Below, in pieces: positions 1,627 through 59,157 of a stretch of 64,000 nucleotides of DNA. The first letter of the stretch is position 1. Every line of letters starts with the position of its first letter. The stretch spans positions 1 to 64,000 of the IMG/VR virus record IMGVR_UViG_3300021962_000076. The stretch is one strand, 5' to 3'. A program made the position numbers and the translations under genes. The stretch comes from an uncultured virus (IMG/VR IMGVR_UViG_3300021962_000076) (lineage: Duplodnaviria > Heunggongvirae > Uroviricota > Caudoviricetes). A model generated the notes under the pieces. That model saw only the letters and a list, made by a program, of their open reading frames with translations. It did no database searches and was not told the origin of the DNA.

Positions 1627-2088
1627 ATGGCAAATGGAATAACATATGGAATAACGTTTCCTTTTTCACAATCAACAATTGGTAGATTCTTAGGCGTTAC
1701 AGAAACATCTGATGATGAAATAAGGAGTAACATAATACACCTATTATTAACTAGAAAAGGATCAAGATATTTTTTACCTGATTTTGGTACTAGACTATAT
1801 GAATTTATTTTTGAACCATTAGATGGGCCAACATTCTCTGATATTGACGCAGAAATTAGACAAAGTATTGGTCAATATCTTCCTGGAGTTAGAGTTACAA
1901 ATATTGAAATAACTGATGCTAGTAATGATTTTGACAATAAAGGTGCCACATATATTAATTCAGAGGGTCAAAGAGAATATGTAATTCCTGGTTTAGCACA
2001 AAAAGAATATACAGCAAAAGTTAAAATCGATTATAAAATAACAAATTCAGCATTAGAGTCTAGTGATTTTGTTATAATTAATATTTAA
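1627..2088 (+). CDS. Baseplate wedge subunit, T4 gp25 / GPW-like
   Basis: IRSNIIHLLLTRKGSRYFLPDFGTRLYEFIFEP signature. Confidence 0.9.
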   Translation: MANGITYGITFPFSQSTIGRFLGVTETSDDEIRSNIIHLLLTRKGSRYFLPDFGTRLYEFIFEPLDGPTFSDIDAEIRQSIGQYLPGVRVTNIEITDASNDFDNKGATYINSEGQREYVIPGLAQKEYTAKVKIDYKITNSALESSDFVIINI

Positions 2089-4005: not shown

Positions 4006-7000
4006 ATGCCAAAATCGCAAAGAATATCAACAAACATAGGTGTAGACAAATCATTACGAGTACAGTTAGATCAAGACTTTGAAACACTAAATATATTATC
4101 GCTTAAAATACTAAAAAGTGACATATATAGTAGACAATGTTCTGACTATGGGGTTGTTGTTGGTAGAGTATCAGTTAATGGTGGATTTGGATTACCAAAC
4201 GCCAAAGTATCTATTTTTATACCATTATCAGAAGAAGACAGCAATAATGAAGTTATAAAACAAATTTATCCATACGAGTCATTATCTGATTTTGACGATA
4301 ATGGTTATCGATATAATCTATTATCTAAAAATCCATCATATGATGGTCACGTTGTTACCGGGACATTTCCAGATAGAGAAGAAGTTCTAACAGATCAGAC
4401 ATATATTGAGTTATATGACAAATATTATAAGTTTACAACTAGAACAAACGATAGTGGGGATTATATGATATTTGGTGTACCAACTGGTAGCCAAACCGTT
4501 TTTATGGACGTTGATTTATCTGATATTGGGTGTTTTTCATTATCACCACAAGACTTAATCCAATCAGGACAAGCCACCGAATCACAAGTAAATGGGTCTA
4601 AGTTTAAATCATCAACAAATCTAAGTGAATTACCACAAATAAAAACAATAAATAAAATTATTGAGGTATCTCCACTATGGGGTGAACCTGAAATATGTGA
4701 GTTAGGAATTACTAGAACTGATTTTGATTTAACAGCTGAAGCAAACATTAGTATAAACCCAACAGCTGTTTTTATGGGTTCAATTATATCAACAACAGAA
4801 GATGACGCCTTAAAAACTAATTGTAAACCTAAAAATAATACTGGTAATTTATGTGAATTGGTTTCAGGTCCTGGACAAATATTAACGATAAGACAAACAA
4901 TAGATATTGATAATGAAGGAAGACCAATACTTGAACAATTTGATTTAGGTAATAATGGAAAAGTTATTGATGGAGATGGTTCCTATTTGGTTAATTTACC
5001 AATGAATTTAGATTACATCTACACCAATGAATTTGGTGAACAAGCAATATCTAATGACCCAAAAGTAGGTATACCAACTAAAGCAAAATATAGATTTAAA
5101 TTTAAATGGGAAAATGAAGGTGGATTACAAAATGATTTTTTAAGAGCAAATTACCTTGTACCAAACATTAAAGAGTATGGTTGGACTAGTTCATCATATA
5201 GTACAGATCCATTAAAAACAGGTCTAGAACAAACAATAGAATTTATAACACCAGTTGGAAATACCTCAACAACGGTTACTTTTACACAAGATGGTGGATT
5301 AGTTTTTGACGAAACAATAAATACATCATCATATAGTGTGACAATAAATGGACAACCTTATTTTGGTGATACGCAGGTTATTAGTGTTTTGGCTGGGGAC
5401 GTTGTTGAAATAACACCAGTATTTATAGACCCAAGTACACCATCCACTGTTAATTATACAAATTATAATCAAGAATATTTTGAATTATTAAAATCATATT
5501 CATTTAGTCTAGATTGGGATGATTACGTAAATCAACAGGAAGCCATCAACTGTGAAGATACTTTTTATGAGTTTAATTATAACAAGGTATATACAACAGC
5601 TATGTTTATTGATAGATATAAAAATGGTATTGGTAGAGGTCGACATTTAGGTATTAAAGAAATTGATAATCGAAGTTGTAAATCAGATGTTAATACATTT
5701 CCAGTAAATGATGTCATTAGAAATTTTGACTTTTTATTTTTTGCCTTTAACCTACTACTCAACATATTAACACCAATATTTGTTGTTGTTTTATTTGTAG
5801 CACATTTAATTGCTTTAATGTGGCCAATTTTAAAATGGATATTAATAGCATTAGGTCTATATTTTACAGTACAAGCTGTATTTGAAGTTATTGACATTGC
5901 TAGTCAAATAGCTAATATTGGAAACGAAATTGCTGGTTTATTTAGTTTTGGTATTGGAGCAGTATTTAATTTAACAAATTTATTACAGGCTATATTATTG
6001 TCACTAACTCTTCTAGCTTTAATAACTAAAGCAATTTTTATTATTGGTATATCTCTTGGATTTTTAACCTTAGCAATATTTGCAGCACTTAAAGTCAAAG
6101 GATTTCCAAGAATTGGCCTTCCAATGATAACTTATCCAGATTGCTCAACTTGTGATTGTAATTGCGGTGAAGCTGAATTGGGTGATGATTTTGATAGTTC
6201 ATCTGTTGAGTCATACGCAAACCAACAAGGAAGTCAAAATATAAATTTAGGTGGTGATTTACCATCTGGAATACCAGTAATGACTGCAACACAAAATTCG
6301 ATTTTTGCACCAATAAATAAACTTAATAGCTACATAGTAGAACACCCAAATTTAGATCAACCTTTAAATGATGATAATGAACCTTTAAGATGTTATGGTA
6401 ATTTTTGGTTTCAAGGGAGCGGTAATGACTGTTTTGGGGGAATTGGAGGACTAGATAGAGGAGCTCCAGAATATCAATATCGTTCATTCACAAATCAATC
6501 AGCAAATCAAACATTAGATGGTAGTGTTGGTGTTCCAGCAGGACTTGGGTTTCTTAGATTAGCTGCAGGTAGTGAGTCATTAGATGAGTCTAATATCCAA
6601 TATGGTATTCCAAGTAAATATTTATTACACGCACCACAACCATTTTTATTTGCGACATATAGAAGTGGGAATAATAGTGATTCACTAAGATATTTAGCAC
6701 AACCAGCAACTGAAGCTTACTCACAAAAACTAAATGAGTTTAATTATAGACAAAAATATTTTGATGTTGTTAATAGAATTAAAGTCACATTTAATGAACC
6801 AGATAATAATGGTTTGTCACATTACGATCAACCACTAGTTATTTTAGCAAGACCGGGAATGCTACAAACTTTAGGTATTGGACAGTTATTCACTTTCCAA
6901 GACCCTAATTTATCTAATTGTAATGTAAATATAACAGGAGCAACATTTGATGGTGACACAAATCAGTTTGGAACAAATGGTGTAACAGGAACAACACAAA

Positions 7001-14470: not shown

Positions 14471-17466
14471 TGGCAAATAAATTTACTTGTCCACCACAAG
14501 CCTCAGGTCAGGGGTCGTTTTCAGACAATCTAGTTGGATTCCAACTAGTTGATGGAGGGGGTTTTACACAAGGTAATTTTGAATTTACAACAGCTATTAG
14601 CGAAAAGCAGGATAGAAATTTTATTATTGGAACATTTTCAGACCCAATATCATTGGATAGTATGAATGTTACCAACATTGAGGAGTCTAGATTTCTAGTT
14701 GCAAAAAATTTCCAAATATACCCAAATTATGATTTAACAAATGTTACAAACTTTACACAATATGGGTCATTATCACTTAGGTTTTCAAACTCAATAACTA
14801 GAATTATAAATTATTTTCCTGCGGCATTAGACGTACAAAAAATTAGATCTAATTTTAGTGTTGGTAATACAGCCGAAAATATAACCTATGACCCAATAGA
14901 TAATGAGACAAAAATTGATATACCATTATTATCTATAAAAAACCCATTAGGGATTGATTATTCAGCAAACGCGGAAAATAATGTAAATGCCTTAGAAATC
15001 ACAGTATCAAATCTAAGGAATTTTAAAAATAATTTCCAAAAGTATGCGGTATATATTGACGAAGAACCATTTTCAATAAATGACATTGTACCAACAACAT
15101 TAGATAGTACTCATTTAAGATTATACATCAATGGTAATCCATTCCCAAACCAAACAACATCAGAAAAGAATTTCCTAATAAGACCAAATGATATGTATGT
15201 CAACAAAGTCTTTAATGATAATTTTGATGGTGTTGAAAATTTCTTATTAAATAGAAATATTACACCAAAATACATGGCATATTTTAATGTCCCTAAATTA
15301 CAAGAAGATGGTAATTATATTTTTACTTACGACTCTGCGGCATTTCCATTAGATGGTAATTGGAATTTAGATATTAGAACAAATGCTTTTAATCAATACC
15401 TAGATAAATTAAATAATTTTGCAATTAATTTTGATGAATATAAAACAAACTTAATATCTAGATTTTTAACAACCGCATCATTAAAAGAATTCGATACCGC
15501 GGATAAAAAAGTTGAGAAGATGTTACAGATATATGGTAGAAGTTTTGACAACACCAAAACTTTTATTGATGCACTTAGCATGATGAATTCTGTAAATTAT
15601 AATGTTAAAAACGATATACCATCTCAGTTACTAACCAATTTAGCACAAACACTAGGTTGGAAAACAAATATATCGCCAATAACAGAAGATGAATTACTTA
15701 ATTCTTTATTTAAATCAGAAGATAATACATTTACTGGCGTCTCACAAGGTAAAACACCAGATGAATTAAATTACCAGTACTATAGAAATCTAATTTTAAA
15801 TTCAGCATTTCTATTTAAATCTAAAGGTACTAGAAAATCAATTGAAATTTTATTAAGACTTATTGGCGCTCCAGATTTTTTAGTTGATTTTAATGAATAT
15901 ATCTACATAGCAGACCAAAAAATTAATATATCAGAGTTTAACACAAAATACGCCCAAATATCGGGAGGAACCTACGTTAGTCAAACACCAGTGTTAGACC
16001 CAACAGATACCTTCTCAATTATGGGAGTGCAATATACTGGAACCACGTATCAAACAACAACAACAGATATTAGTGTGACCAACATAGACTACCCAATTGA
16101 TAGCTTTGGATGTCCTAGTATGCCAGTTGAGAGTGAATCATATTTCTTCCAAATAGGTGGGGGTTGGTTTGAATCAACACCACAACATAGAATGCCAGAA
16201 CAAGTTGATTTAACAACAAGTGTTTTTACTGGATCAAATCCAAATTATCAAACAACGTTAAAACCATTCAATTATGGTGATGAATATCTAGAAAGATATA
16301 GAAATTTCCCATTTATGGATATGGGCTTTAGATTGAGAAGGGTTATTGATAACAAAAAAAGCTGGACTGATAAAGAAATTAATTTAAGAAATTCATCAGA
16401 TGGGAACTTTAATGCGTATTATAATATTGGAGAAGAGTGTTTAGCAATTAACGTTAAAAATGTTGATATTATGCTAAACCCAAGTTTCGGTCTATTATAT
16501 GATGTTTATACAATGTCAAGAACGTACAACTACCCAATACCAAATGAAGGGCTTCAATACGTCAAACCAACATACTGTAATCCAGACCCTATTAATAATT
16601 ACCCAAGAAGGGGTGGTATTGATTGGACTGAAATAATACCAAAACCAAAAGAAAAAACCTTCTTTGAGTTTGCACAGACTTTTTGGAGAAATATGATAAA
16701 TGTTAGAAATAGACAATTTATCACAGACGGAAAAACTGGAGGATACCCAACATTACAATCAATTTATTGGAAATATTTAGAATCAGATCAAGCGATTAAT
16801 ATACCAAATGATAATTTTACATATCGTACTATGATTGATTATGTAAATAAATTAGGCGACTATTGGGTTAGATTAATTGAACAAATGGTTCCAGCAACAA
16901 CGATATGGAACACTGGTGTTAGGTTAGAAAACTCAATATTTCATAGACAAAAATTTGTATGGAGAAGACAATTTGGTTGTAAGATTATACCAATACCTTG
17001 CAAACCTTGTGAATTAACAACACAATTATTTGCTTACGATTGTACATTACAAGAAATTACACATTGGTTATACCCATGGAATTATAATCCAAATATCGTA
17101 TCATTTGGTACTATATTAACTGAAACATTAAACACGTATTTAAGTAATCTTGGAATTACATTAAATCAATGTATTTTAAATACCCTAAACTCACAATGGT
17201 ATGTTGAAATTAAATTAAATGGAAATATTATAGCTCTTGAACAATTTGCGGAAACAAATGGATATGTACAGACACCAACAAATCAAGAGTGGGTTGATGG
17301 TGTAGCTAACGCCCTACAAACATTAGAAACTAGTGGTATTTATTATGCAATTGACTTAGATAACGAAACAATTATTATATATAATAATAACTGTGTACCA
17401 TACCAATATGACGATGAATTTGAAATCAACGTTGGGATAAACTTTAATATATTATGTAATCAATAA
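14470..17466 (+). CDS. Putative baseplate wedge protein (P2 gpI / T4 gp7-like segment)
   Basis: LLTNLAQTLGW...LFKSKGTRKSIEILLRLIG resembles the KGT motif of the phage tail protein I family. Confidence 0.55.
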   Translation: MANKFTCPPQASGQGSFSDNLVGFQLVDGGGFTQGNFEFTTAISEKQDRNFIIGTFSDPISLDSMNVTNIEESRFLVAKNFQIYPNYDLTNVTNFTQYGSLSLRFSNSITRIINYFPAALDVQKIRSNFSVGNTAENITYDPIDNETKIDIPLLSIKNPLGIDYSANAENNVNALEITVSNLRNFKNNFQKYAVYIDEEPFSINDIVPTTLDSTHLRLYINGNPFPNQTTSEKNFLIRPNDMYVNKVFNDNFDGVENFLLNRNITPKYMAYFNVPKLQEDGNYIFTYDSAAFPLDGNWNLDIRTNAFNQYLDKLNNFAINFDEYKTNLISRFLTTASLKEFDTADKKVEKMLQIYGRSFDNTKTFIDALSMMNSVNYNVKNDIPSQLLTNLAQTLGWKTNISPITEDELLNSLFKSEDNTFTGVSQGKTPDELNYQYYRNLILNSAFLFKSKGTRKSIEILLRLIGAPDFLVDFNEYIYIADQKINISEFNTKYAQISGGTYVSQTPVLDPTDTFSIMGVQYTGTTYQTTTTDISVTNIDYPIDSFGCPSMPVESESYFFQIGGGWFESTPQHRMPEQVDLTTSVFTGSNPNYQTTLKPFNYGDEYLERYRNFPFMDMGFRLRRVIDNKKSWTDKEINLRNSSDGNFNAYYNIGEECLAINVKNVDIMLNPSFGLLYDVYTMSRTYNYPIPNEGLQYVKPTYCNPDPINNYPRRGGIDWTEIIPKPKEKTFFEFAQTFWRNMINVRNRQFITDGKTGGYPTLQSIYWKYLESDQAINIPNDNFTYRTMIDYVNKLGDYWVRLIEQMVPATTIWNTGVRLENSIFHRQKFVWRRQFGCKIIPIPCKPCELTTQLFAYDCTLQEITHWLYPWNYNPNIVSFGTILTETLNTYLSNLGITLNQCILNTLNSQWYVEIKLNGNIIALEQFAETNGYVQTPTNQEWVDGVANALQTLETSGIYYAIDLDNETIIIYNNNCVPYQYDDEFEINVGINFNILCNQ

Positions 17467-19697
17467 TGTCATTTCCTTTAGAAATATTAAATTTATCAAT
17501 AACTGGTGATTGTTCATTAGTTAGTGGCGGGTCAATTAACCTTTTATTTACTGGTGGGACAGCACCATTGGCGGTTTATGAAGCACCAATAACAACTGGA
17601 TTATTACCCACTTCAGGTTATACATCATTTGATTACACCCTTTATCAAGCTAGTGGATTACCACCCGGTGAATATTTTTTAACTATAGCAGATTCTTCAG
17701 CCTCAATCCCCGATATTGTTATACCATTCAATATTTCATCTGGAAGTACAGTACTAATAGATGCTGAAAATACAACTTGTGGTTTTAATAATGGATCAAT
17801 AACCGCATCAACTAGCAGTAATTTTGGACAAGTAACACTTAGTTTATATAATTCATTAGACAATTTAGTTGAAACACAAATAGCACCATACCCAACTTCA
17901 ACAGCATATTTTACAAATTTATCTGCTGATACATATTATGTTATTGGTGATGATGGTGGTGGCTGCACAGGACAAAGTGCTTCAGTTGTAATATTACCAT
18001 CAACAAGCTTTAATTATGGTGCTTATATTGTAAATGACTCAAGTTGTGTATCAACTGAAGGACAAGGAAAGATAATAATAACAGGTCTTACAACACCAAC
18101 AAGTGCGTATACAATAAATTGGATTAGTGATGTTAATGGTCAAACAGGAACAACAGTAACAGGATTAACACAAGGACTATATACTGTAGAAATAACAAAT
18201 CCTATTGGTTGTACCAATCAACAAGCATTTTTTGTTGACTTAGTACCATTAGTTGGAATTGGCTCTTTAATTGTAACCCAACCCCCAAGCTGTTTTACAA
18301 GTGATGGTGAAGTAACTGTTGTTGTTACTGGTGGTACGGCTCCATATTTTTATGTTGGGTCAAATGGGGATACATTTGTTAATTTTAGCACATCACAAAC
18401 ATTTACGAATTTACCAGGAGGTTTATTTACTGTGACAGTCACAGACGCTGGACTTTGTAGTGCTTCACAATCGGTACTATTAAATACACCAAATAGTTTT
18501 GGTGGAATTACAATACAAACAACAAACTCAACTTGTAGTAACAATAATGGTCAAGTCTCGATTAGTTTAGGATTTGCAGCACCAGGGTCTTATAATTATA
18601 GTATATCTGGTATTAGCGGATCACTATTTTTTCAAGAAAATGGGGTGGGGACACAAACGACATTCCCAAACCTAACATCAGATGATTATATAATAACAAT
18701 TGACAATGGTAGTGGATGTATTTTTACCGGAACAACAACCATTAGTAATTTAGATAAATTTACAATAGGGACTACAATTAGTGGAACTACTTGTGGTAGC
18801 AATAATGGAGAATTATTAGTTAGCTTATCTTCTGGTACAACAGGTAGTATCGCAACAACACCAGTGTTATATAACTTACAAGGACCATTACCTTCACTAT
18901 CAAATACAACACAACCTATTGGGTATTTCCCAAATTTACAAGAAGGGACATACCAATTAACAGTGACAGACTATAGTGGTTGTTCACAAATTGAAACAGT
19001 TTTTATTGACCCATCTAGCGCTGTTGATTTTATTTTAGTTGGTACAAACCCATTTACTGGTTATGATGGTGAAATTACGACTTTAATTACAAATGGGGTC
19101 CCACCATTTACATTAGTTTGGTCTGGAGATGTTATGGGGCAAACAGGCACAACAATAACTGGTTTAACATCAGGAACATACGAACTAACAGTTATAGATA
19201 GTGAAGGATGTTATAGAACTAGATCAATAACATTAAATGGTACTATATTAGTTGGTGGATATGAATCATACGTTGTATCAACAGAAACTTTTTCAGACAC
19301 AGATTCAGTTAGTAAACGAGGTATACTACAAATGTATAACGAAGGATTTTCTGATTTAACTAGTGGTGATACAAATTGTATTGTAACTGGTGCAACATTT
19401 ACATTAGATGTTATAGTTGGGTCTGAGTCGAAACAAAACTTATTTTATACATCGACAGGTTTAACAGACTATCCATCTGATTATTTGTGGAGTGAAGCAA
19501 TTAAAGAAACTTTAAATGAATTTGTTGGTATTGGAGAAGTTATTATAGATTTTAATACAAATAGTATTAAAATAACAAATGATTGTGATGAAATTAAAAA
19601 AGATTGTAAAAGGGAGACATATAATCTATTAAACGATGAGAAAATCATAATAAATTTAATTATTGATTATGACATTGCTTGTGTAGAATGTGCTTAA
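17466..19697 (+). CDS. SprB-repeat virion/adhesin protein
   Basis: Repeated GGTAPY / GLxxGxYxVTVTDxxGC units typical of Bacteroidota SprB repeats. Confidence 0.75.
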   Translation: MSFPLEILNLSITGDCSLVSGGSINLLFTGGTAPLAVYEAPITTGLLPTSGYTSFDYTLYQASGLPPGEYFLTIADSSASIPDIVIPFNISSGSTVLIDAENTTCGFNNGSITASTSSNFGQVTLSLYNSLDNLVETQIAPYPTSTAYFTNLSADTYYVIGDDGGGCTGQSASVVILPSTSFNYGAYIVNDSSCVSTEGQGKIIITGLTTPTSAYTINWISDVNGQTGTTVTGLTQGLYTVEITNPIGCTNQQAFFVDLVPLVGIGSLIVTQPPSCFTSDGEVTVVVTGGTAPYFYVGSNGDTFVNFSTSQTFTNLPGGLFTVTVTDAGLCSASQSVLLNTPNSFGGITIQTTNSTCSNNNGQVSISLGFAAPGSYNYSISGISGSLFFQENGVGTQTTFPNLTSDDYIITIDNGSGCIFTGTTTISNLDKFTIGTTISGTTCGSNNGELLVSLSSGTTGSIATTPVLYNLQGPLPSLSNTTQPIGYFPNLQEGTYQLTVTDYSGCSQIETVFIDPSSAVDFILVGTNPFTGYDGEITTLITNGVPPFTLVWSGDVMGQTGTTITGLTSGTYELTVIDSEGCYRTRSITLNGTILVGGYESYVVSTETFSDTDSVSKRGILQMYNEGFSDLTSGDTNCIVTGATFTLDVIVGSESKQNLFYTSTGLTDYPSDYLWSEAIKETLNEFVGIGEVIIDFNTNSIKITNDCDEIKKDCKRETYNLLNDEKIIINLIIDYDIACVECA

Positions 19698-19706
19698 TAT
19701 ATTTTT

Positions 19707-20003
19707 ATGAGTGAAATAACAATAAATACCATTTCAGGACTAACACCACCATATAGTGTTTATGTGTGTAATGTTTATGGCGTTTATTGTGAATTTATAG
19801 GAGTTACAACAACAACACCAACAACAATAGTATTACCACCAGCTTTTGATTCAGCACCAATTGTGGGGATTAAAATAATTGATAGTACTGGTTGCGAGAG
19901 ATTTAAACTAGTTGAATGTCTTGATTTATCACTAGACGAAAAAGAATTCCAAAATGGAGACACATTTTATTTTATGGATTATGAAATATATCAATTCCAA
20001 TAA
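19707..20003 (+). CDS. Small Cys-containing Ig-like structural protein; paralog of 28650..28871
   Basis: Shared pattern IxISGxTP.VYVC....C....IID...CE. Confidence 0.55.
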   Translation: MSEITINTISGLTPPYSVYVCNVYGVYCEFIGVTTTTPTTIVLPPAFDSAPIVGIKIIDSTGCERFKLVECLDLSLDEKEFQNGDTFYFMDYEIYQFQ

Positions 20004-20033
20004 CTTAGATTATTGTATTTATAATTAAAAAAG

Positions 20034-20972
20034 ATGGCGTTATTAACAGATAGAACTTTAGCAACAGGCGTAACATTACAAGATTTAATACACATTGTAA
20101 TTCCAACAGATATTTCACAAAATCCAGCTGGATCATCATATAAAGCAACAATACAACAAATTGGGGACGCATTAAGTGGAAGTAGTTATTGGACTTCAGG
20201 GTCAACTGGGAATTATTCAGTTAAAACAATTAATGACAGTGGATTAGATGCTATAGGTGAATATTCAGTAGCAAGTGGTTATTTAACAACGGCAAGTGGT
20301 GATTATTCTTATGCGGAAGGAGTCGAAACAATAGCGTCAGCACCAATTTCGCATGCCGAGGGATATCAAACAATAGCTAGTGGCACAGCGTCTCATGCTG
20401 AGGGTGTGTTAACGATTGCCAGTGGTCAAACAGCCCACTCTGAGGGTTATAATACAATTGCTGGTGGTGTAGCAGCCCACTCTGAGGGTGGTTATAATCT
20501 AGCTTCTGGTGACTTTTCGCATGCTGAGGGTCATGAAACAAAAGCTTCTGGTTATTCTTCACATACTGAGGGTGATAATACTAGTGCTTCTGGTGATTAT
20601 TCTCACGCTGAAGGTAGATATACATATGCTAATGGTATGACATCACATGCTGAGGGTTCTGGTACCACTGCTAATGGTGCGGCAACACATTCTGGTGGGT
20701 TTAATACTAGCGCATTGGGGGACTATTCCTTTATACATTCAAATAATTCAATAGTAACTGGTGATAGAAGTGTTGTTTTGGGTGGTCAGGGTATAACTGG
20801 TACAACAAGTGATACTGTTTATGTTCCAGATTTTGTAATTAAAAAAACCGCATCTGTACCAACTAGCTCTGCTGATGCTGTTGGTGAAAATGGTTCCATT
20901 ACTTGGGATAATACTTATTTTTATTGGAAGGCAAATGGGCAATGGCTTAGAGTTTCTGGGTCAACATTTTAA
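20034..20972 (+). CDS. Fibre/adhesin with YadA-head-like 14-aa repeats
   Basis: Tandem ASGxxSHAEGxxTx repeats; C-terminal GSITWDNTYFYW cap typical of phage fibres. Confidence 0.75.
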   Translation: MALLTDRTLATGVTLQDLIHIVIPTDISQNPAGSSYKATIQQIGDALSGSSYWTSGSTGNYSVKTINDSGLDAIGEYSVASGYLTTASGDYSYAEGVETIASAPISHAEGYQTIASGTASHAEGVLTIASGQTAHSEGYNTIAGGVAAHSEGGYNLASGDFSHAEGHETKASGYSSHTEGDNTSASGDYSHAEGRYTYANGMTSHAEGSGTTANGAATHSGGFNTSALGDYSFIHSNNSIVTGDRSVVLGGQGITGTTSDTVYVPDFVIKKTASVPTSSADAVGENGSITWDNTYFYWKANGQWLRVSGSTF

Positions 20973-21120
20973 TAATATATTAAAAATTTAACTAATCACA
21001 AAATAAAGATTTACACTTTTTCTAAAATCAAACTATCTATATTTATTTGGTATTTTTAACAAAAAAAATGTATTCATTATTTTAACATTTAAATTATATT
21101 TAAAAATATAATATTAAAGA

Positions 21121-22095
21121 ATGAATAATTTAGTTTTTGTTACAGCACAACCAGACGTACCTTATTTTCATTGGCAAATAAAATTATATACACATAATTT
21201 TATTGAAAAAGGAATTGACCCAAAAAATATACACGTCATTTTAGCCATGGTCCATGGCGCTACAACACAATCAGAAGGTGCTAAAGAATTATTAAACCAA
21301 GGATATAACGTTCATTTTTATAAAGACGATAGAGATAAAAAGTCATATATCCCAAGTATAAAACCATACCTAGTTTCAAAATGGTTAGAAGAATATCCAG
21401 AATTTGGTAAAGTATTCTTTTTACATGATGCGGACATTATATTTAACAAATTACCAGATTTTGATAAATTATTAAGTGATGATATAAGTTATTTATCAGA
21501 TACAATTGGTTATATTGGATATAATTATATTATGGATTGTTGTGATCGATATGAAAAACAACACCCAGAATCAGAAAAAGGACAATTAATACAAGAAATG
21601 GCCAATGTTGTCGGACTAGATGTTGAGACAATTAAAAATAATCAAGAAAATTCTGGTGGAGGCCAGTATATTATAAAAAATACAGATTATAAACTTTGGG
21701 ATAAGATATACAAAGATTGTACACCATTATATAATCAAATGTTAGATTACCAAAGAAGATTCCCAATAAATCCTGGTCAAATACAATTTTGGACGGCAGA
21801 AATGTGGTCAGTACTTTGGAATTTATGGTTAGTTGGTAATGAAACCAAAATAACAAAAGAGTTAGATTTTTCTTGGGCAACAGACGATATAAAAAGGTAT
21901 GAAGAAATGCCAATACTTCATATGGCAGGTGTAACAGATAATTTAAAAGATGTTAAATTTTATAAGGGGGATTATATTAATAAAGACCCAATCAAATCAT
22001 TAATAAATAACCCAAACCATTTTGATTATATTGATAAAAATAGTTCTACAATAAAATATATCGAATTAATGAAATCTTTTATAAAAAATAAATAA
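21121..22095 (+). CDS. GT-A fold glycosyltransferase resembling HPAT / peptidyl-serine alpha-galactosyltransferase (GT95/GT96-like)
   Basis: PYFHWQ, YIPSIKPYLVSKWL, LHDADIIF (DxD) and WTAEMW occur in the same order as the family motifs YFDWQ, YPAINKP..WL, LDADM and WISEMY. Confidence 0.7.
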   Translation: MNNLVFVTAQPDVPYFHWQIKLYTHNFIEKGIDPKNIHVILAMVHGATTQSEGAKELLNQGYNVHFYKDDRDKKSYIPSIKPYLVSKWLEEYPEFGKVFFLHDADIIFNKLPDFDKLLSDDISYLSDTIGYIGYNYIMDCCDRYEKQHPESEKGQLIQEMANVVGLDVETIKNNQENSGGGQYIIKNTDYKLWDKIYKDCTPLYNQMLDYQRRFPINPGQIQFWTAEMWSVLWNLWLVGNETKITKELDFSWATDDIKRYEEMPILHMAGVTDNLKDVKFYKGDYINKDPIKSLINNPNHFDYIDKNSSTIKYIELMKSFIKNK

Positions 22096-22119
22096 ATGAT
22101 TATTTATATATAAAACAAT

Positions 22120-24390
22120 ATGGCAGGGTGCGATCAATGTAGGCAAACTATTTTAGTAAATACAGGTGTAACGGTTAGTGTTGCAACATTAATTGATTGT
22201 AGTGGTAATACAACATCTTTTAGTTTAGCACCAACATCTGGATTCACAACATACGAACCATATATTACCGATTTTTGTAGTGGAACCACAATTAGCGGTG
22301 ATACACTATATATCGATAATGATTATCCACTAACACATTGGTACTCCTTTAGTTCTTGTTGTAATAACGAAGAGTTTATCGTCTACTCAAGTTCAAAACT
22401 AATCCAAACAGGAGAGACAATAAATATAATTGATTCTAAATCATATAATGGAAATGTATATACCGGATGTTATACCTGTACAAATACTGATAAAATTGGT
22501 TCTAACGAACCTATTTTAGATAGATTAATATATTTTGAACCACAAGGAAGTCCTATTGAAGGCATTATTATCTATAAACTAGGCTGCGTAAGTTGTCTTG
22601 AAGTAAATCCATGTCCTACAATATGTTATAAATTATATTCTTGTGACAATCTATATGATCCATTTTATAGTAAAAACGAAGGACTATCTGGTTTTGTGAA
22701 TAATTATGTTTCTTTAACAACTAGTGGTATAACTAATGGATGTTTTTATGTTACAGGAGTTGAAAGTTGCGACAATTATGAAGATGTTACAATAAATTAT
22801 GATATAATGTGTGAGTGCACATGTAGTTGCTACACTTATACAATACCTGAGAATTCTAAACCAATAATAATAACTTATATTGATTGCAATGATAACGAAA
22901 TATCTAATTATGTTAATACAGGCGCCACAACAAGTATTTGTTCAAAGATAACTCCTTTATTTTATAATGAAGTAAATCGAATTATAATCCCAATTAAAAA
23001 TAATGGTCCATGTATTAATGGAGAATGTCAAAAACAACCAATAACAATAAAACCAAGAAATGAGTGTGATGTTATAACTATTTTCCCTATGGGAGTTAGT
23101 TGCTTAGTAACAAACCCATCATCAGTAAATTCATTTGATGGTTATACATACTTACAAATAACAGGAGGAACACCACCATATACAGTAATGTGGGAGAATG
23201 GAAGTTATGGACAATCTTTAAGTGATTTAAACATAGGTGAATATAGTGCGACAGTTACAGATTTTTATGGTGATTTTATAATTAACACAACTTGCGTATT
23301 AACAGCTACAACAACTACTAGCACAACAACCACAACAACAACAATACCAGTAATTTATGGACCATTATGTCTATCATATAATGAAAGTGTACATTATAAT
23401 ACCACAACAACACAAGTCCAATTTGAACCATCTATCAACATTAACAATCAACCAAGTTGGACTGGTACAACAGACTATTTACTATATTGGAACGAAAATC
23501 AATGGATTATAACTGGAAGTACAATTAATGGGGATTTAGTAAATAATAATCCAATAACACCACCATTAGTTGGTTGGCAATTCCTAGGTAATCCATATTA
23601 TGTTGCGGATACATTATTATTATATTCAGGTTTATGCACTAGTGGTGAAGCAATAATTTTAAATCAAATTGCAAATACAAATGTTGACTGTAATAATTTA
23701 GGATCAATTGCAATAACACCAAATGGAGGTACACAACCATATTTATACTCAATTAATGGAGGAATAAACTACTATAACACACCAATATTTAATAATTTAC
23801 AACCAGGCACATATTTCATTAAAACTAAAGATTCTTTAGATAATGAATCACAAATAACAGAGGTATTAGTTGAAAATATACCAACACAACAATATACATT
23901 ATCATTAAATGTTGATCAAAACACAAATACATTTACAATAACACCAGATAGTAGTTTACCACCATATCAAACTATATCATTTAATTTTGGACATATTAGT
24001 ACCTTCATTGGAGTATCAACAATAAATCCAGGGCAATCATATGACAATATAGTAAGTTTTGGTGCTTTAGGAACTATGACATATGTTGGACAAAATAATT
24101 CAACAGATACTATAATTTGTGGTGGATATGTTACTCCTAGACAAATACAACAAACAACATATACAAAAGCACTAACAATAAATGGTGGTGAGACAATAAC
24201 TGGATCATTTACTGATTTACTAAACTATGGGATTTGGACACCAACCGAATGTAGATATATAGATGGTCAGTACACATTATTCATTGAAAGTGCTAATTGT
24301 GGCGACTGTTGTATTGTAAAAATTATAAATCCACCATTAACACAAAATCTTGGAGGAGGTAATTTTGTGTTACCACCAAAATTACCATAA
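22120..24390 (+). CDS. Cys-rich virion protein with SprB-like repeats and a poly-Thr linker
   Basis: Many Cys residues; ITGGTPPY and GGTQPYLYS units; TATTTTSTTTTTTT tract. Confidence 0.65.
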   Translation: MAGCDQCRQTILVNTGVTVSVATLIDCSGNTTSFSLAPTSGFTTYEPYITDFCSGTTISGDTLYIDNDYPLTHWYSFSSCCNNEEFIVYSSSKLIQTGETINIIDSKSYNGNVYTGCYTCTNTDKIGSNEPILDRLIYFEPQGSPIEGIIIYKLGCVSCLEVNPCPTICYKLYSCDNLYDPFYSKNEGLSGFVNNYVSLTTSGITNGCFYVTGVESCDNYEDVTINYDIMCECTCSCYTYTIPENSKPIIITYIDCNDNEISNYVNTGATTSICSKITPLFYNEVNRIIIPIKNNGPCINGECQKQPITIKPRNECDVITIFPMGVSCLVTNPSSVNSFDGYTYLQITGGTPPYTVMWENGSYGQSLSDLNIGEYSATVTDFYGDFIINTTCVLTATTTTSTTTTTTTIPVIYGPLCLSYNESVHYNTTTTQVQFEPSININNQPSWTGTTDYLLYWNENQWIITGSTINGDLVNNNPITPPLVGWQFLGNPYYVADTLLLYSGLCTSGEAIILNQIANTNVDCNNLGSIAITPNGGTQPYLYSINGGINYYNTPIFNNLQPGTYFIKTKDSLDNESQITEVLVENIPTQQYTLSLNVDQNTNTFTITPDSSLPPYQTISFNFGHISTFIGVSTINPGQSYDNIVSFGALGTMTYVGQNNSTDTIICGGYVTPRQIQQTTYTKALTINGGETITGSFTDLLNYGIWTPTECRYIDGQYTLFIESANCGDCCIVKIINPPLTQNLGGGNFVLPPKLP

Positions 24391-24417
24391 AATATCATTA
24401 CTTAGTATTTATTAGAA

Positions 24418-26895
24418 ATGGCATATATAATAAAAAATACATCGGGATTAGTAAACACTAGAGTTACAGACATTGGACGCCAAAAATTATCACAAGGTAA
24501 CTTTAAAATTTCATATTTTCAGATTGGAGATAGTGAAATTTCATATGATAAAATTCCACAAAATTATAACCAATCAAATAGCTTTGTATTAGAGCCGCAA
24601 TTTAATTCACAAAATGCCGCAGGTGTTCCACAATCAAATAGACAATATGTAAAATATCCATATTTAGTTGATGAAGCACAAACCAATATATATGGAATTC
24701 CATATATGGATTCACTAATTGAATCTGTATTTAATAGAGCACCACTTAGAGGATTTTTTACTGGGGACACAACACAAGGTATAATAAATTGGGACTTATT
24801 GACTAATGACAAATATGTTGTTAGTGCAAATTATATTGTAAATACTGCAACCCTAAATGGGTCTAATCAAATTGAAATTATATATTCAGGAACTAATACT
24901 AGTAATTTACAAACACCACAAATTGGTGATATAATTACAATATACTATGATGGTAAAGCCAAAAATAACGTTGAGTGTTTTAATTTGCCAACACCAACAC
25001 CAACACCAAGTATTAGTTCATCACCAACAACCGCAACTACAACAACTACAACAACAATAGTTGATTGTGCTTCACCAACACCTACACCTACACCAAGTAA
25101 GACACCTTGTTTAACACCAACACCAAGTCCACAATGTCCATTACCACCATACCCAGATTGTTTTATGGGTATGAATAGTTGTACTATAATGTTAACATAT
25201 AGAATTATTGATGTTTGTAAAAATACGTTAACATTAGATAGACCAACACCAGATTATAGATTTTTCCCAAGCGATTGTTATTCTAGAGTAATTATTTACC
25301 CATCGAATATGACACAAATATACGATAGCATAACCCCAGAGCCACATTGGAACGATCAGGTAATTGATTTTGAATCAATTTGTGATACTGACCAATTTGA
25401 TGTTAAAATATGGAATATGAATATACCTTGGACTGAAAATCCAGCAGGGATAATTGAAACACAATATGAAGGATACCAAAATTCATTATCTATTGACTAT
25501 ATTGGGTCTAAAGAATATTTTGGATATAACTCAAGTGAGGGACAAACAGATACTAGTGCAACTTTTTATTATAATTCATTAGGTGATATTGTAACAACAA
25601 AACCAGAAGACCAAAAAGCAATTGCGATTATACATTATACAAATCAAACAATAGATTTCTTTTATGGTGAAAAATTTGCATTAGAACCATATAACCCATC
25701 GAATCCTAGTGATACAACAGGACAAGCAAGAAACTTTAAACTACATATTCCTTGGTTAATGTGGCATAAAAACCCTAATTGTTGTAATGGTCAAACGTTT
25801 TGGGTTGACCCACCAGGATTTGATGACAAAGACTTATTTAAACCATATTATATTAAATCCACAAGGAATGAAACTATGAACCAACCAGGTATTAGGTATT
25901 ATCATTTGTGGGACACAAACAAAAATAACGATGGGCTACCAAATAGAATTGGTAAAGTATTTCCAGATAGTAAATTAGTTATTATTGATGATGATGAGAT
26001 TATTGCTGCAATGTCATATAAAGCAAATAGAAACTGGACATTACCAGCACCACAATTATCACTATTAACACCAAATACATGTGACACAACAACATCACAA
26101 TTTGGTATTTTAACAGGTAGTAATCAAACTATGTATGTAACATATAGATTAACAAATAAATTTGGATTTACAAATTCGTTACATTGTAATTATTATGTTA
26201 AAATACAAGGTAACAATAATGAATGTAATCCAGATACAACTAAAAATGTTGCTATTAGATTTGGCGAAGAGTTTGGATGTTTAATACAACCAGGATATTC
26301 ACCAGTTACAACTACTACAACATATTATCCAGTTACAACAACAAGTACTACATACCCATGTTATGGATGTGAACTACCAGATGGGTATTTTGGTGACGAA
26401 TTCCAAGTCCTAGCACAAATTGTTGCAACAGGAGAAAGACCGGACCCGACAAAGTGGAAAATAATTGATTTTACAAGTCAAATTAGTAACAATTTTATAA
26501 ATGGGTACATAACACAAGAATCAATTGTTAATAGTACCTTTGTTATAACAAATGAGAATTATCAAGCAGCACCTTATTATAATTTAAATGATTATATACC
26601 ATTAACACCATTAAATACAACAACTAAAAAATTAAATTTTGGCGATGAGTTTTATTTTTATGGTGCAATAGAAACAGACATACAAGCAACAATATATGAA
26701 ATGAAATACAAAATAAACCTAAGTTCAAACGAGTTTCAAGTATCAACAAACCCATCTTGGACATTGGGGACTCCATCATATATAACAGAAATTGCTCTAC
26801 TTGATGATAATAAAGATATTTTGGTTATGTCTAAATTACAATCACCTACATTAAGACAAGGTATACAGCAGTATGTGGTTAAGATAGATTTCTAA
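24418..26895 (+). CDS. Tail-fibre attachment / baseplate protein (DUF3751-like ends) with Pro/Thr-rich inserts
   Basis: N-terminal VTDIGRQKLSQG..YFQIGD and C-terminal YITEIALLDDNKDILVMSKL; internal PTPTPTPS and TTTTT tracts. Confidence 0.55.
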   Translation: MAYIIKNTSGLVNTRVTDIGRQKLSQGNFKISYFQIGDSEISYDKIPQNYNQSNSFVLEPQFNSQNAAGVPQSNRQYVKYPYLVDEAQTNIYGIPYMDSLIESVFNRAPLRGFFTGDTTQGIINWDLLTNDKYVVSANYIVNTATLNGSNQIEIIYSGTNTSNLQTPQIGDIITIYYDGKAKNNVECFNLPTPTPTPSISSSPTTATTTTTTTIVDCASPTPTPTPSKTPCLTPTPSPQCPLPPYPDCFMGMNSCTIMLTYRIIDVCKNTLTLDRPTPDYRFFPSDCYSRVIIYPSNMTQIYDSITPEPHWNDQVIDFESICDTDQFDVKIWNMNIPWTENPAGIIETQYEGYQNSLSIDYIGSKEYFGYNSSEGQTDTSATFYYNSLGDIVTTKPEDQKAIAIIHYTNQTIDFFYGEKFALEPYNPSNPSDTTGQARNFKLHIPWLMWHKNPNCCNGQTFWVDPPGFDDKDLFKPYYIKSTRNETMNQPGIRYYHLWDTNKNNDGLPNRIGKVFPDSKLVIIDDDEIIAAMSYKANRNWTLPAPQLSLLTPNTCDTTTSQFGILTGSNQTMYVTYRLTNKFGFTNSLHCNYYVKIQGNNNECNPDTTKNVAIRFGEEFGCLIQPGYSPVTTTTTYYPVTTTSTTYPCYGCELPDGYFGDEFQVLAQIVATGERPDPTKWKIIDFTSQISNNFINGYITQESIVNSTFVITNENYQAAPYYNLNDYIPLTPLNTTTKKLNFGDEFYFYGAIETDIQATIYEMKYKINLSSNEFQVSTNPSWTLGTPSYITEIALLDDNKDILVMSKLQSPTLRQGIQQYVVKIDF

Positions 26896-26946
26896 AAAAC
26901 ATTTAGTTTTAAATAAAATCAATTACTTTCTAATAAAACATAGTAT

Positions 26947-27555
26947 ATGGCAAAAGATATTAAAAACACACCAAAGGTTTTAGGATTAGACATATCAACA
27001 AAAACAATAGGGTGGGCATTATTTGACGTAAAAAGTCAAGAGTTACTAGAATTAACACACATCTCACCTAGGCCAAAAATGGATAAAAATAATGATGATA
27101 AATTAAAAGAGTTATTACTTAAGTCTGAAATTTTTGCACAAAAACTAATGGAATATAAAAATTTAGGTATATTAAAAGTGATAATTGAAGAACCATTATT
27201 AAACTCAAACAACATATACACAATACAAACACTATTAAGATTTAATAGCTTTATTTTTAAAGAAATTTATAATATTTTAGGAATTGTACCACAATTTATA
27301 TCAACATATAACGCAAGAAAATTTGCCTGGCCAGAACTAGTAAAAGAAAACGAAAAGGGTAAACACGTATTATTTGGCGGCCTACCAAAGGATATTGATA
27401 AAAAAATGTTAGTATGGGAAAAAGTAGCAAAAAAAGAACCACAAATTATATGGTCATACACAAAAAATAATACACTTAGAAAAGAAAATTTTGATCAAAC
27501 AGACGCGTATACTTGCGTCTTAGGCTATATGAAATCAAATGAAATTTGGAAATAA
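26947..27555 (+). CDS. ruvC: RuvC-like Holliday junction resolvase
   Basis: VLGLDISTKTIGWA, VIIEEP and DQTDAY acidic catalytic motifs. Confidence 0.75.
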   Translation: MAKDIKNTPKVLGLDISTKTIGWALFDVKSQELLELTHISPRPKMDKNNDDKLKELLLKSEIFAQKLMEYKNLGILKVIIEEPLLNSNNIYTIQTLLRFNSFIFKEIYNILGIVPQFISTYNARKFAWPELVKENEKGKHVLFGGLPKDIDKKMLVWEKVAKKEPQIIWSYTKNNTLRKENFDQTDAYTCVLGYMKSNEIWK

Positions 27556-28650
27556 TTAATTACATAAATTACCAGTAACATCAATTTCCAGTAATGGCCC
27601 ACCTGGGAAACTAGTTTGCACTGGTGTAGTCGCTGAACAAAGAATTATTGTGTCTCCTTTATTAATAACCCCAGATATATTACCAGTACAATCAGAGAAT
27701 TCAAAACTAATTCCAATTTGGTTACCATTGTATATATGATACTCATTTAAAATACAAGGAGCTTCAGTTGTGGTAGTTGTTGTTGTCGAAGTTGAAGTCG
27801 AAGTTGTTGTTGTTTGAGGAGGTGGACACTCTAAACAAGCACCATCTTTCTCTAAACCAATCTCATACAAAACCTTAATATTGTCTATACCACTTATATT
27901 ATCGGCTAAACCAAGGAATGTAGCACATGTCGTATATGAATTAGTTAACGTATTAATCTGAATCTTGTAAACGACCCCCTGATTAATTATGGTATTTTCA
28001 GCAATTAAATTTAAGACCTCTGATGTATAATACTCAAAACCATTAAAACAATCCTTAAACACTTTTGTATTACCACATCTCATATACTCATCAAATATGT
28101 TAAATGTGACAATACCATCGAAAATACATTTACGATTAATTGTTGTTGTTGTAGTTGTTGTTGGAACAAATGTTGTAGTAGTTGTTGTATATGTTATAGC
28201 AGAATAACTAATAGAAACACCGCTACATAAATCTGGAGGTATTGTAGTTGTTGTAGTTGTTGTAGTTGTTGCAGATGTTGTCGTGGTAGTTGTTGGAACA
28301 ATACAATCAAAGATTGCGTCAAAATCAAAGACATCACAAGGTGAAGTTGTTGTAGTTGTAGTTGTAGGACAAGCACCAGAGGAGCTAGCAACAAGGGATA
28401 TACCGTCCCAAAAGTCAGGACATACCGAGAAACTATTTAAAGGACCAAATTGATCACAAGTCCCGCCCAATGAACTTGATAAACACCATAGATTTTCAGT
28501 TACCCCAGTGCTAAAATAAATAAAATAAGATGATGTTATACCAGTATAGTAATTGTATCCATTGTATGTACCACCAGAAAGGAATACATCATCATATACG
28601 TATCCAGTATTAAATATACAAACAGTACTTCCAGTACAAGTAAAAGACAT
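27556..28650 (-). CDS. Cys-rich, mucin-like Thr-rich putative virion protein
   Basis: Four or more poly-Thr tracts between Cys-rich modules. The ATG at 28650 overlaps the upstream stop (TGATG). Confidence 0.65.
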   Translation of the reverse strand: MSFTCTGSTVCIFNTGYVYDDVFLSGGTYNGYNYYTGITSSYFIYFSTGVTENLWCLSSSLGGTCDQFGPLNSFSVCPDFWDGISLVASSSGACPTTTTTTTSPCDVFDFDAIFDCIVPTTTTTTSATTTTTTTTTIPPDLCSGVSISYSAITYTTTTTTFVPTTTTTTTINRKCIFDGIVTFNIFDEYMRCGNTKVFKDCFNGFEYYTSEVLNLIAENTIINQGVVYKIQINTLTNSYTTCATFLGLADNISGIDNIKVLYEIGLEKDGACLECPPPQTTTTSTSTSTTTTTTTEAPCILNEYHIYNGNQIGISFEFSDCTGNISGVINKGDTIILCSATTPVQTSFPGGPLLEIDVTGNLCN

Positions 28651-28871
28651 CAAACATTAATTATTTCATTTATTTCACAACTATTATCATCAATAACTCT
28701 TAGTGTAAAATTTCCAGAGTTAGTCAGTAATGTAGGAACTTCAAAAGTGTAGGGAAAGTCACCAGGTGTTATTGTATTTACATAAATACAAGTTGTATAT
28801 CCAGTATCACAAACATAAACATTAAATGGTGTTTGGCCTGAAATATCGTTAATAATAACATCTGTTGGCAT
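28650..28871 (-). CDS. Small Ig-like protein; paralog of 19707..20003
   Basis: IINDISGQTPFNVYVC...RVIDDNSCE; a TATTTAT motif lies upstream on the minus strand. Confidence 0.6.
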   Translation of the reverse strand: MPTDVIINDISGQTPFNVYVCDTGYTTCIYVNTITPGDFPYTFEVPTLLTNSGNFTLRVIDDNSCEINEIINV

Positions 28872-38366: not shown

Positions 38367-38894
38367 ATGAAATACTTACTTTTTATTTACCCATGTGATA
38401 ATACTTGGGACAAAGACGAACACAACAAGATTGTCGCAACAGAGATATCAACAGTGATTGAATCAGTTGAGGTTAAATTCATTTTTGGTGAAAACCATTC
38501 AATATTTCATTTTAATAGTGGACTATCATATTCTGAATTGGAAATTTTTGTTGAGCTATTAAAAGATGATGTCCCAGAATTTATGTACTTTATCGTTGAA
38601 GATGCAAAAAATGTTGCGTCAAATATGGATAAAAATCATTTAACTTATTTAATGGATTTAGAGGTCAAGCCAAAAAAGAAGAATAGAATTAAAGATATAT
38701 TTAAAAATAATCAAGACATCTTTAGTTTTTATAATTTAACTAAAATAATAAACAATGATCAGTATAATTTCTTAAAAGAGGAGACCTGTGATTTGACTAT
38801 TGATGAAATTTTAGATAAAATTATAGAACAAGGTATTGACTCTTTGACAAAACTAGAAAAATTGAAATTAGATGAATATTCAAAAGAACAATAA
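38367..38894 (+). CDS. Hypothetical protein
   Basis: 175 aa with a C-terminal TIDEILDKI..G..SLT motif; tatatttg at 38345 upstream. Confidence 0.6.
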   Translation: MKYLLFIYPCDNTWDKDEHNKIVATEISTVIESVEVKFIFGENHSIFHFNSGLSYSELEIFVELLKDDVPEFMYFIVEDAKNVASNMDKNHLTYLMDLEVKPKKKNRIKDIFKNNQDIFSFYNLTKIINNDQYNFLKEETCDLTIDEILDKIIEQGIDSLTKLEKLKLDEYSKEQ

Positions 38895-38895
38895 T

Positions 38896-40551: not shown

Positions 40552-40556
40552 AAATT

Positions 40557-41441: not shown

Positions 41442-41446
41442 AAACT

Positions 41447-59091: not shown

Positions 59092-59108
59092 ATTCTATAA
59101 ATACAAAA

Positions 59109-59131: not shown

Positions 59132-59157
59132 ATATGTATTCTTTAGTTAAATGAAAT

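Follow-up and report, generated by a model that had tools for sequence, protein, structure and literature searches.

A predicted phage glycosyltransferase gained and lost together with poly-threonine runs: a candidate system for O-glycosylation of virion proteins

Mycobacteriophages are described as glycosylating their own particles: according to the accessible portions of four reports (PMC12619734, PMC11256854, PMC12363180, PMC12582341), phage-encoded glycosyltransferases (GTs) act on the C-termini of capsid and tail-tube proteins, and the first of these also mentions, in the part available, a jumbo-phage clade with four unnamed GT orthogroups. In plants, HPAT1-3 (family GT95) and SGT1/SERGT1 (family GT96) are initiating peptide O-glycosyltransferases that act on repetitive hydroxy-amino-acid tracts (PMC8012813 and PMC7933510, in excerpt). 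Here we describe a GT gene in a 64,000-nucleotide stretch of DNA from an uncultured virus (positions 1 to 64,000 of IMG/VR record IMGVR_UViG_3300021962_000076; hereafter the window). The gene lies at 21121..22095 on the + strand and encodes a predicted soluble GT-A glycosyltransferase of 324 residues that belongs to the PHROG 4417 family (phrog_4417, E 3.8e-70). In relatives of this gene, the GT and runs of consecutive threonines (poly-Thr) have been gained and lost together repeatedly and independently, and we consider it probable that the phage-encoded GT O-glycosylates poly-Thr tags on virion proteins, acting in the cytoplasm with a host nucleoside-diphosphate sugar before or during assembly.

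If this reading holds, the system would resemble the glycosylation of virions by mycobacteriophages in the way it works, with an enzyme from another family and an acceptor tag that can be recognised. The mycobacteriophage systems, reportedly described by Freeman et al. (2023) for Che8 gp108-110, Corndog gp38 and Myrna, combine a phage-encoded GT with C-terminal glycans on capsid and tail-tube subunits; Firmicutes phages with a PHROG 4417 GT have Thr tails at these same sites, known in their case from genes alone. The enzymes show no sequence relation (Che8 gp108-110 score -0.6 to -3.1 bits against the hidden Markov model (HMM) of the PHROG 4417 family), and neither the capsid nor the tail tube of Che8 has a Thr run, both ending in Ser, whereas the PHROG 4417 phages have Thr tails. 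Furthermore, Che8 carries three GTs at the genome end, and the PHROG 4417 phages a single one within the structural operon.

The open reading frame (ORF) proposed by the initial annotation of the window is present, and its motifs stand in the order claimed for them: YFHWQ at residue 15, SIKP at 79, WL at 88, HDAD at 102 and WTAEMW at 224. An AlphaFold (AF2) model computed from a 115-sequence input (predicted local distance difference test score (pLDDT) 97.6, predicted template modelling score (pTM) 0.94) has a GT-A fold, with the catalytic fold beginning at residue 6. GT-A glycosyltransferases consist of a single Rossmann-like domain with a DxD motif and a C-terminal His, and the window GT has all three features. 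HDAD (21424..21435, +) supplies the DxD motif, and its two Asp residues, D103 and D105, are present in 115/115 aligned homologs and form the predicted metal/nucleotide-sugar binding site. ILHMAG (21913..21930, +) contains H267, a His in 114 of the 115 homologs, which we take to be the third metal ligand of GT-A enzymes. WTAEMW (21790..21807, +), with an acidic residue at position 227 in 100/115 homologs (D 64, E 36, G 14), lines up with WESDM of bacterial proteins that match Pfam HPAT and is presumably an xED-like motif on the acceptor side. No membrane anchor was found in the protein (the maximum 19-residue hydropathy is 0.78, with no transmembrane segment). Both model and sequence therefore point to a soluble GT-A glycosyltransferase with predicted catalytic activity.

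The family is large: one search assigned to it 1275 proteins out of 1760 candidates, and another gave 840 clusters at 50% identity. PHROG 4417 is listed as function unknown, its members (for example bIL285 Orf45, LP65 Orf49 and phiFL1A gp51) were labelled unknown or hypothetical in every record that we opened, and some annotations read 'prophage pi2 protein 34'. A search of PDB sequences with the family profile gave no match. Longer homologs combine the domain in one protein with GT2, GT7C, GT6, GT25, GT60-type, O-fucosyltransferase or radical-SAM domains.

The best fold match of the window GT is glycogenin (Z 15.0, root-mean-square deviation (rmsd) 3.6, 228 residues), and Skp1 alpha-galactosyltransferase (Z 14.2, rmsd 3.3, 208 residues), the UGGT catalytic domain (Z 13.8, rmsd 4.1, 242 residues) and the PBCV-1 capsid glycosyltransferase 2p6w (Z 11.3, rmsd 3.5, 188 residues) are also matched; identity to the GT8-like matches is 7-11%. 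No GT95 or GT96 structure is listed among the matches, and the presence of such structures in the libraries is uncertain. The top matches are thus GTs of protein or peptide-linked glycans from the GT8-like group, as one would expect of the protein-directed enzyme proposed by the initial annotation. It tells against our reading, however, that the lipopolysaccharide (LPS) and lipooligosaccharide enzymes WbbM (Z 13.6) and LgtC (Z 13.5, rmsd 3.8, 233 residues) are close behind. Because they lie within about 1.5 Z of the top, the fold alone leaves the substrate class undecided; the fold that the window GT has in common with glycogenin, Skp1 GalT, UGGT, LgtC and 2p6w fixes neither donor nor acceptor.

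The fold matches also bear on the idea that the protein binds Thr tracts or attaches something other than a sugar (a phospho-alcohol taken from a CDP donor, for example), or that it is instead an assembly factor or virion component. Nucleotidyl- and phosphotransferases with a GT-A fold do appear lower in the match list (Z 9-10), and the gene was always found among morphogenesis genes in the cultured phages that we opened. We nevertheless judge this very unlikely: the best fold matches (Z 13-15) are true glycosyltransferases, and the DxD, the His and the acidic W-x-x-[DE]-M are conserved and in register with the Pfam-HPAT proteins.

Our main reason for linking the GT to poly-Thr comes from controls in which IMG/VR was searched with capsid and tail-tube alignments minus their Thr tails, and 240 loci were scored for a GT within 8-kb flanks and for TTTT in the last 35 residues (some GT-positive rows are prophages that also served in the queries). 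C-terminal poly-Thr was found in 57/58 GT-positive loci vs 1/121 GT-negative loci. Broken down as GT and tail, GT only, tail only and neither, the counts were 16/1/0/40 for the phi13-type tail tube, 2/0/0/58 for the HK97 capsid and 39/0/1/22 for the TP901-type tail tube; with rows >95% identical removed, Fisher p values were 5e-12, 2e-3 and 3e-6, in a test that ignores relatedness. Two trees from these controls imply 10 changes of the GT in one and 5 in the other; for the tail, the corresponding numbers are 9 and 4. There were 4 and 3 independent pairs on well-supported branches, none of them opposite in direction. When we pooled three trees (the pooling is our own), 7-9 informative pairs all pointed in the same direction (p 0.016-0.004). 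The co-occurrence of the GT with Thr-tract genes proposed by the initial annotation thus holds up strongly against GT-negative controls.

A second, separate virion gene was tailed in 17/17 GT-positive vs 1/40 GT-negative loci of one set and in 37/39 vs 0/23 of another, so simple linkage of the GT to an adjacent gene is insufficient as an explanation. This bears on the possibility that there is no functional link and that the GT and a Thr tail hitchhike as one recombining cassette. Phage genomes are mosaic, the GT usually adjoins a tailed gene and there are few independent pairs per tree, all of which such hitchhiking would fit. However, a genome has two to four tailed genes that do not adjoin one another, the tails occur on non-homologous proteins in siphoviruses and myoviruses alike, and the GT shifts position (after the capsid, tail-tube or decoration gene) while the tails stay; at one locus (L246), a Thr-tailed fn3 decoration gene precedes the GT instead. 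We regard hitchhiking as the least probable of all the accounts considered here. Tail tubes of the TP901 type gave a further hint, in that a Big_2 Ig-like C-terminus was found in 9/23 GT-negative vs 0/39 GT-positive proteins (L358, L359, L367-L370, L372, L381 and L385 have Big_2 in place of the Thr tail). This suggests that Thr tail and Big_2 are two alternative surface decorations.

In the window itself, Thr or PT tracts sit at the four regions named by the initial annotation (about 23300-23350, 24990-25130, 26305-26350 and 27770-28370), on three proteins that are candidate acceptors. A 756-residue Cys/Thr-rich protein (22120..24390, +) has a Thr tract at 23308-23343 (TTTTSTTTTTTT) and a weak SprB-like repeat (25.9 bits, with a cut-off of 28). 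An 825-residue conserved, unannotated protein (24418..26895, +) has a run of seven Thr at 25036-25056 and one of five at 26308-26322, as well as PT repeats at 24991-25011, 25072-25098 and 25114-25131 that are independent of the GT; searches with it gave no phage match and otherwise only low-complexity matches, and its model (pLDDT 47) had no Foldseek match at E<=0.001. The third, a 365-residue Cys/Thr-rich protein (20% Thr) encoded at 27556..28653 on the - strand, has six Thr runs between 27766 and 28365. Runs of at least five Thr occur in only 3/57 reading-frame segments of at least 150 residues in the 74.65-kb record, and all three lie within 22114-28656, the downstream flank of the GT. An origin of these tracts as DNA microsatellites was considered and is ruled out by their mixed ACA/ACT/ACC codons, which mean that the tracts exist at the protein level.

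Relatives of this phage allowed us to separate the two kinds of tract. Nearly all loci retrieved via the GT (79/80) have a Thr or PT tract, and the exception ends 0.5 kb after the GT. Retrieval via the 825-residue neighbour gave 80 loci, of which 69 have the GT, 8 lack it with intact synteny and 3 are cut short. Runs of at least five Thr were found in 68/69 GT-positive loci (the exception, L481, is truncated) vs 0/8 GT-negative loci, and the same held gene by gene: 67/69 vs 0/8 for homologs of the 825-residue protein, 27/69 vs 0/8 for the 756-residue protein and 37/64 vs 0/5 for the 365-residue protein. The 8 GT-negative loci represent two independent losses of the GT on well-supported branches of the own-clade tree, and no GT homolog was found elsewhere in five of these records examined whole (one of them complete, at 257 kb). 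Four-fold PT repeats were retained in all eight. Since both losses removed every run of at least five Thr yet kept the PT repeats, poly-Thr, and not PTPT, is the likely acceptor; PT repeats were rejected as acceptors, and the PTPTPTPS tracts that had been linked to the enzyme in the initial annotation drop out of the picture. The survival of PT repeats also argues against Pro/Hyp as the acceptor residue.

These results also help in judging whether the GT might act on phage DNA or on a host surface polymer (LPS or teichoic acid), leaving the tracts as unmodified flexible linkers. Phage GTs directed at DNA and at host serotype are described in the available part of PMC12619734, WbbM and LgtC are among the fold matches, and the PT repeats that survive without the GT indicate that some tracts here are plain linkers. 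What this account leaves unexplained is that tails on several separate virion genes come and go with the GT, and that bacterial relatives have the peptide-modification gene clusters and PqqD fusions described below; moreover, the GT gene lies in the structural module, far from the C5-methyltransferase genes at 39700-42322. We consider it extremely unlikely.

Cultured phages carry the same pairing. A tblastn search of 50,697 GenBank phage records found full-length homologs in 77 (24-38% identity among the rows shown), with hosts mostly in Lactobacillus, Enterococcus, Staphylococcus, Lactococcus and Clostridium, and with one Chryseobacterium phage; no mycobacteriophage was among the 78 records at E<=10. 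Each of the 12 records (of the 77) that we opened has structural-region genes with Thr tracts, and 11 of these records have the tract on the immediately preceding neighbour of the GT or, at the end of that neighbour, in a shifted frame. The tracts were seen on capsid and tail tube in phiFL1A, iLp84 and 1706, on the tail tube in phiCTP1 and bIL285, and on small decoration genes in Bacchae and iLp84. Among loci from GTDB, a tract was found in 41/80, and in 29/30 hand-sorted Firmicutes-type prophages. In LP65 (L492:4064-6107; gp51, gp50 and gp49), genes with TTTETQTQTQ repeats, not pure runs, precede the GT; one of these repeat genes is annotated as a structural protein identified by mass spectrometry. 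The LP65 GT is the most divergent (24% identity, with a DTD motif), and enzyme and tag may have diverged together in this phage.

As to which parts of the particle would be modified, the initial annotation had pictured glycosylated baseplates and fibres. Gene position in the window is compatible with this, but the clearest cultured carriers are major capsid, tail-tube, connector and small decoration proteins. The most likely scenario is that a soluble, metal-dependent GT-A enzyme is co-expressed with the late genes in the cytoplasm of the infected cell and would pass a sugar from a host nucleotide-sugar straight to Thr hydroxyls in the Thr runs of surface-exposed virion proteins, which would thus carry their own acceptor tags. 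In this phage the tags would be internal linker tracts of three fibre-module proteins, and in Firmicutes phages the C-terminal tails of capsid, tail-tube, connector or decoration proteins. Glycosylation before or during assembly would then give the particle a mucin-like brush, whose purpose might be shielding from proteases, antibodies or host sensing, stiffening of linkers, or a substitute for Ig-like domains in non-specific contacts with surfaces; the initial annotation had suggested adhesion, protease protection or fibre stiffening, which are likewise possible purposes.

The ends of some tailed genes have a pattern of their own. Tail-tube genes close with a Thr run followed by CCC TAA while the +1 frame holds a longer run, and capsid genes close with GCA AAG TAA and have the Thr run in the -1 frame; ends of this type were seen at L088:5661-5924 (SA2), at L493:5714-5920 (TPWB06) and at about 5725-5880 of L086 and L494 (nattely and VPE25). 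This looks like programmed frameshifting that would add or lengthen the tag on some of the subunits. Separately, Bacillaceae-type prophage GTs (L117, L124, L129, L150 and L162) have an extra basic C-terminal domain of 55-65 residues; by eye, this domain resembles a small gene of its own that follows the capsid gene in L170.

The initial annotation had likened the GT to the plant HPAT and SERGT1 enzymes, and here the evidence is divided. The Pfam HPAT family is PF23452, with a curated cut-off of 23.9 bits. The family HMM also matches three actinobacterial proteins at loci in metagenome-assembled genomes (MAGs; E 6e-7 to 7e-6), and these three were the ones to pass the HPAT cut-off among 87 scanned family-HMM matches (26.5-29.1 bits). 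A search for their relatives gave 83 matches, mostly PF23452 carriers; of 15 that were rescanned, 14 pass PF23452 and 6 carry a PqqD domain. When the family profile was compared by hhalign with 49 bacterial relatives on the HPAT side, the two aligned over 261 columns (94.5%, E 7.7e-8), with WQ, DxD, W-x-x-DM, I-x-H and K-x-x-Y in register between both groups. Pairwise BLASTP to one bacterial intermediate was weak (24% over 97 residues, E 2e-6 for the pair), and among ESM Atlas neighbours HPAT was annotated on 10% of the members of the best such cluster, which we treat as a lead. The motif order that the initial annotation had called typical of the plant enzymes is thus shared through Pfam-HPAT-positive bacterial proteins, with no direct plant comparison. 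Against closer kinship, none of 115 aligned family members reaches the HPAT cut-off (one is at E 0.046), and the window protein itself has no match in Pfam (E<=0.01, GT8 included) or NCBIfam. The PF23452 and PF23741 profiles found nothing on the phage's own record, a result of little weight since control genomes were silent too. Taken together, these comparisons indicate a kinship to HPAT that is real but remote.

Topology and acceptor set the window GT apart from the plant enzymes as well. HPAT is a Golgi protein with a type II membrane anchor (PMC8012813, in the part available), whereas the window GT is without a membrane anchor. SGT1/SERGT1 is a type I membrane protein that galactosylates Ser in Ser-Hyp3-5 (PMC7933510, likewise in excerpt), in contrast to the window GT, which has no transmembrane segment and is accompanied by Thr-run tracts without Ser-Pro3-5. 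The plant acceptors are Hyp, or Ser in Ser-Hyp repeats; the predicted acceptor here is Thr runs. For HPAT, the donor is UDP-arabinofuranose and the Hyp is produced by a prolyl 4-hydroxylase. No hydroxylase was found by Pfam scan among 52 ORFs of the window, which belongs to a record only about 25% complete. Of the initial annotation as a whole, a GT-A enzyme with distant HPAT kinship and its co-occurrence with Thr tracts are what stands, while membership of GT95 or GT96 and PT repeats as the target are to be given up. On the bacterial side, we also observed proteins above the Pfam HPAT cut-off with, in some cases, a fused PqqD, a peptide-recognition element (P0343-P0353), and, in actinobacterial MAGs, HPAT-passing proteins at about 5200-6100 (-) of L132, L133 and L163; some 4 kb away at these three loci, the GT is joined to a GT60-type domain in a long fusion protein.

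The nature of the nearest relatives bears on a further alternative, in which a host enzyme adds the first sugar to the tracts and the role of the phage GT is limited to extending or capping the glycan. Lactobacilli, streptococci and Bacteroidota have host systems for protein O-glycosylation, which counts in its favor, as does the presence of chain-extending GT8-like enzymes (Skp1 GalT, LgtC, GlyE and LARGE1) among the top fold matches. On the other hand, the GT-plus-tail pair recurs across Clostridium, Staphylococcus, Lactococcus and Chryseobacterium hosts, the fusion partners of the GT domain (GT2, GT7, GT6, GT25 and GT60-type) are themselves typical extending domains, and the nearest relatives by sequence, those of Pfam HPAT (GT95, with the related GT96), initiate glycosylation (PMC8012813, in the part available). 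We therefore think an extending role unlikely and favor the reading in which the phage GT itself would initiate glycosylation on Thr.

Bacterial homologs provide a view of the family that is independent of phages. In 28 hand-picked Bacteroidota chromosomal loci (among them L091:1349-14107, L105, L104, L097, L121 and L166), genes within 10 kb of the GT include a C39-type exporter (a peptidase-containing ATP-binding cassette protein) in 20 loci, HlyD in 15, LanC-like proteins in 21 and radical-SAM/SPASM proteins in 6; at least one such neighbour, of the type found with ribosomally synthesised and post-translationally modified peptides (RiPPs), is present in 27/28. Precursor peptides of the double-glycine type are encoded close by, and the cores of several contain TT or TTT; the Bacteroidota homologs are often fused to a GT7-like domain. 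The RiPP-type clusters point to peptide substrates and support a peptide acceptor for the family, and the loci are candidates for an undescribed glyco-RiPP class. Thr-rich cores as evidence in their own right were set aside as weak: all 6 GT-near precursors have a Thr-rich start, but 4 of these were in the query, TT is also present in 3/12 distant ones, and this within-genome control is small and partly circular.

Several observations weigh against our reading that the GT glycosylates poly-Thr on virion proteins. A long poly-Thr ORF is absent from 27/28 of the Bacteroidota loci, which means that some members of the family manage without long tracts. The independent-pairs test is non-significant for every single tree (p 0.125, 0.25 and 0.5). 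In the tail-trimmed controls, 61/240 loci, GT-negative with short flanks, were dropped, and 3 of these were tailed; absence of the GT was assessed in 8-10 kb flanks, except for 5 records assessed whole. Individual loci also depart from the pattern: L334 has no GT in the locus and still has a tailed tail tube (its capsid, at 5429-6544, has a Big_2 domain at the C-terminus); L170, also with no GT in the locus, keeps a tail on the connector only; and L136 has a GT and no qualifying tract. The three tract-bearing proteins of the window have no structural annotation, and we place them in the virion by inference. Finally, we found in the literature no measured glycan or activity for the PHROG 4417 family, nor any account of its function or of Thr-tailed virion proteins, in a survey of mainly open-access papers without supplements.

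A wider proposal would be that PHROG 4417 and its relatives constitute a portable 'tag-and-glycosylate' system of the cytoplasm, in which one soluble enzyme, a Thr-O-glycosyltransferase and prokaryotic sister of plant GT95/GT96, would initiate glycosylation with no more than a short Thr run as tag. Phages of at least two phyla would in this way give their capsids, tails and fibres a coat that is interchangeable with Ig-like surface domains, some of them tuning tag length by frameshifting, and Bacteroidota, with a fused extending GT, would produce O-glycosylated ribosomal peptides of a class not yet described. We offer this tentatively and regard it, taken as a whole, as somewhat doubtful. Should our main reading hold, that the GT glycosylates poly-Thr tags on virion proteins, then virion glycosylation by an enzyme family unrelated to those of mycobacteriophages would reach phages from dairy, gut and skin, with hosts in Lactococcus, Lactobacillus, Enterococcus, Staphylococcus and Clostridium, as well as a large jumbo-phage clade, and phages under study for therapy would be among them; glycosylation could be predicted from the genome alone by a sequence tag, and a long-standing hypothetical family would have a function. 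The GT would also be a soluble, membrane-free relative of the plant HPAT/SERGT enzymes on which structure and mechanism could be studied, and it might provide a simple tool for O-glycosylating chosen sites in bacteria.

The window is the opening 64 kb of a linear virus record of 74.65 kb with an estimated completeness of about 25% (CheckV); its GC content is 25-33%, and the nearest relatives were found on contigs of up to about 290 kb. The GT lies in a block of large, mostly unannotated same-strand genes that starts with baseplate wedge genes, a gp25-like one at 1627-2088 (+) and a baseplate-J/gp6-like one at 2094-3932 (+), both given here as context only, and that runs up to 26895; RuvC-like, primase, exonuclease and SbcCD genes come after it. 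Upstream of the GT are a 743-residue SprB-repeat, fibre- or adhesin-like protein (17466..19697, +; PF13573 above cut-off, and a weak match to phrog_26672, a virion structural protein, at E 9.4e-7), which has no run of at least five Thr in this phage although 7/62 homologs in GT-positive loci have one; a conserved 98-residue protein with TTTTPTT (19707..20003, +); and, immediately 5' of the GT, a 312-residue YadA-head-repeat, fibre-like protein with no Thr tract (20034..20972, +). A 73-residue ORF at 28650..28871 (-), 5' of the 365-residue gene, resembles the product of 19707-20003 by eye only. The location of the GT inside a tail/fibre module, as first proposed, is consistent with the gp25, baseplate-J, SprB and YadA-head neighbours, which serve as context only beside tract proteins that lack structural annotation.

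Elsewhere in the window are a sigma-70 factor gene (38872-39696, +), three tandem C5 cytosine methyltransferase genes (39700-42322, +), an Amidase_2 gene (44353-44946, +) and a DnaJ gene (51043-51966, +). Three very acidic ORFs of 335, 371 and 433 residues, on both strands at 56969-60691, are mutually alike by eye and have no Pfam family above cut-off. A second sigma domain, like those of extracytoplasmic function factors by eye, is encoded at 63460-63999 (-) and runs on to 64473 of the record. Beyond the window, record positions 72237-74648 hold an ORF that by eye is glutamine-synthetase-like and a signal-peptide-bearing, Thr/Gly/Cys-rich ORF that is interrupted by the record end.

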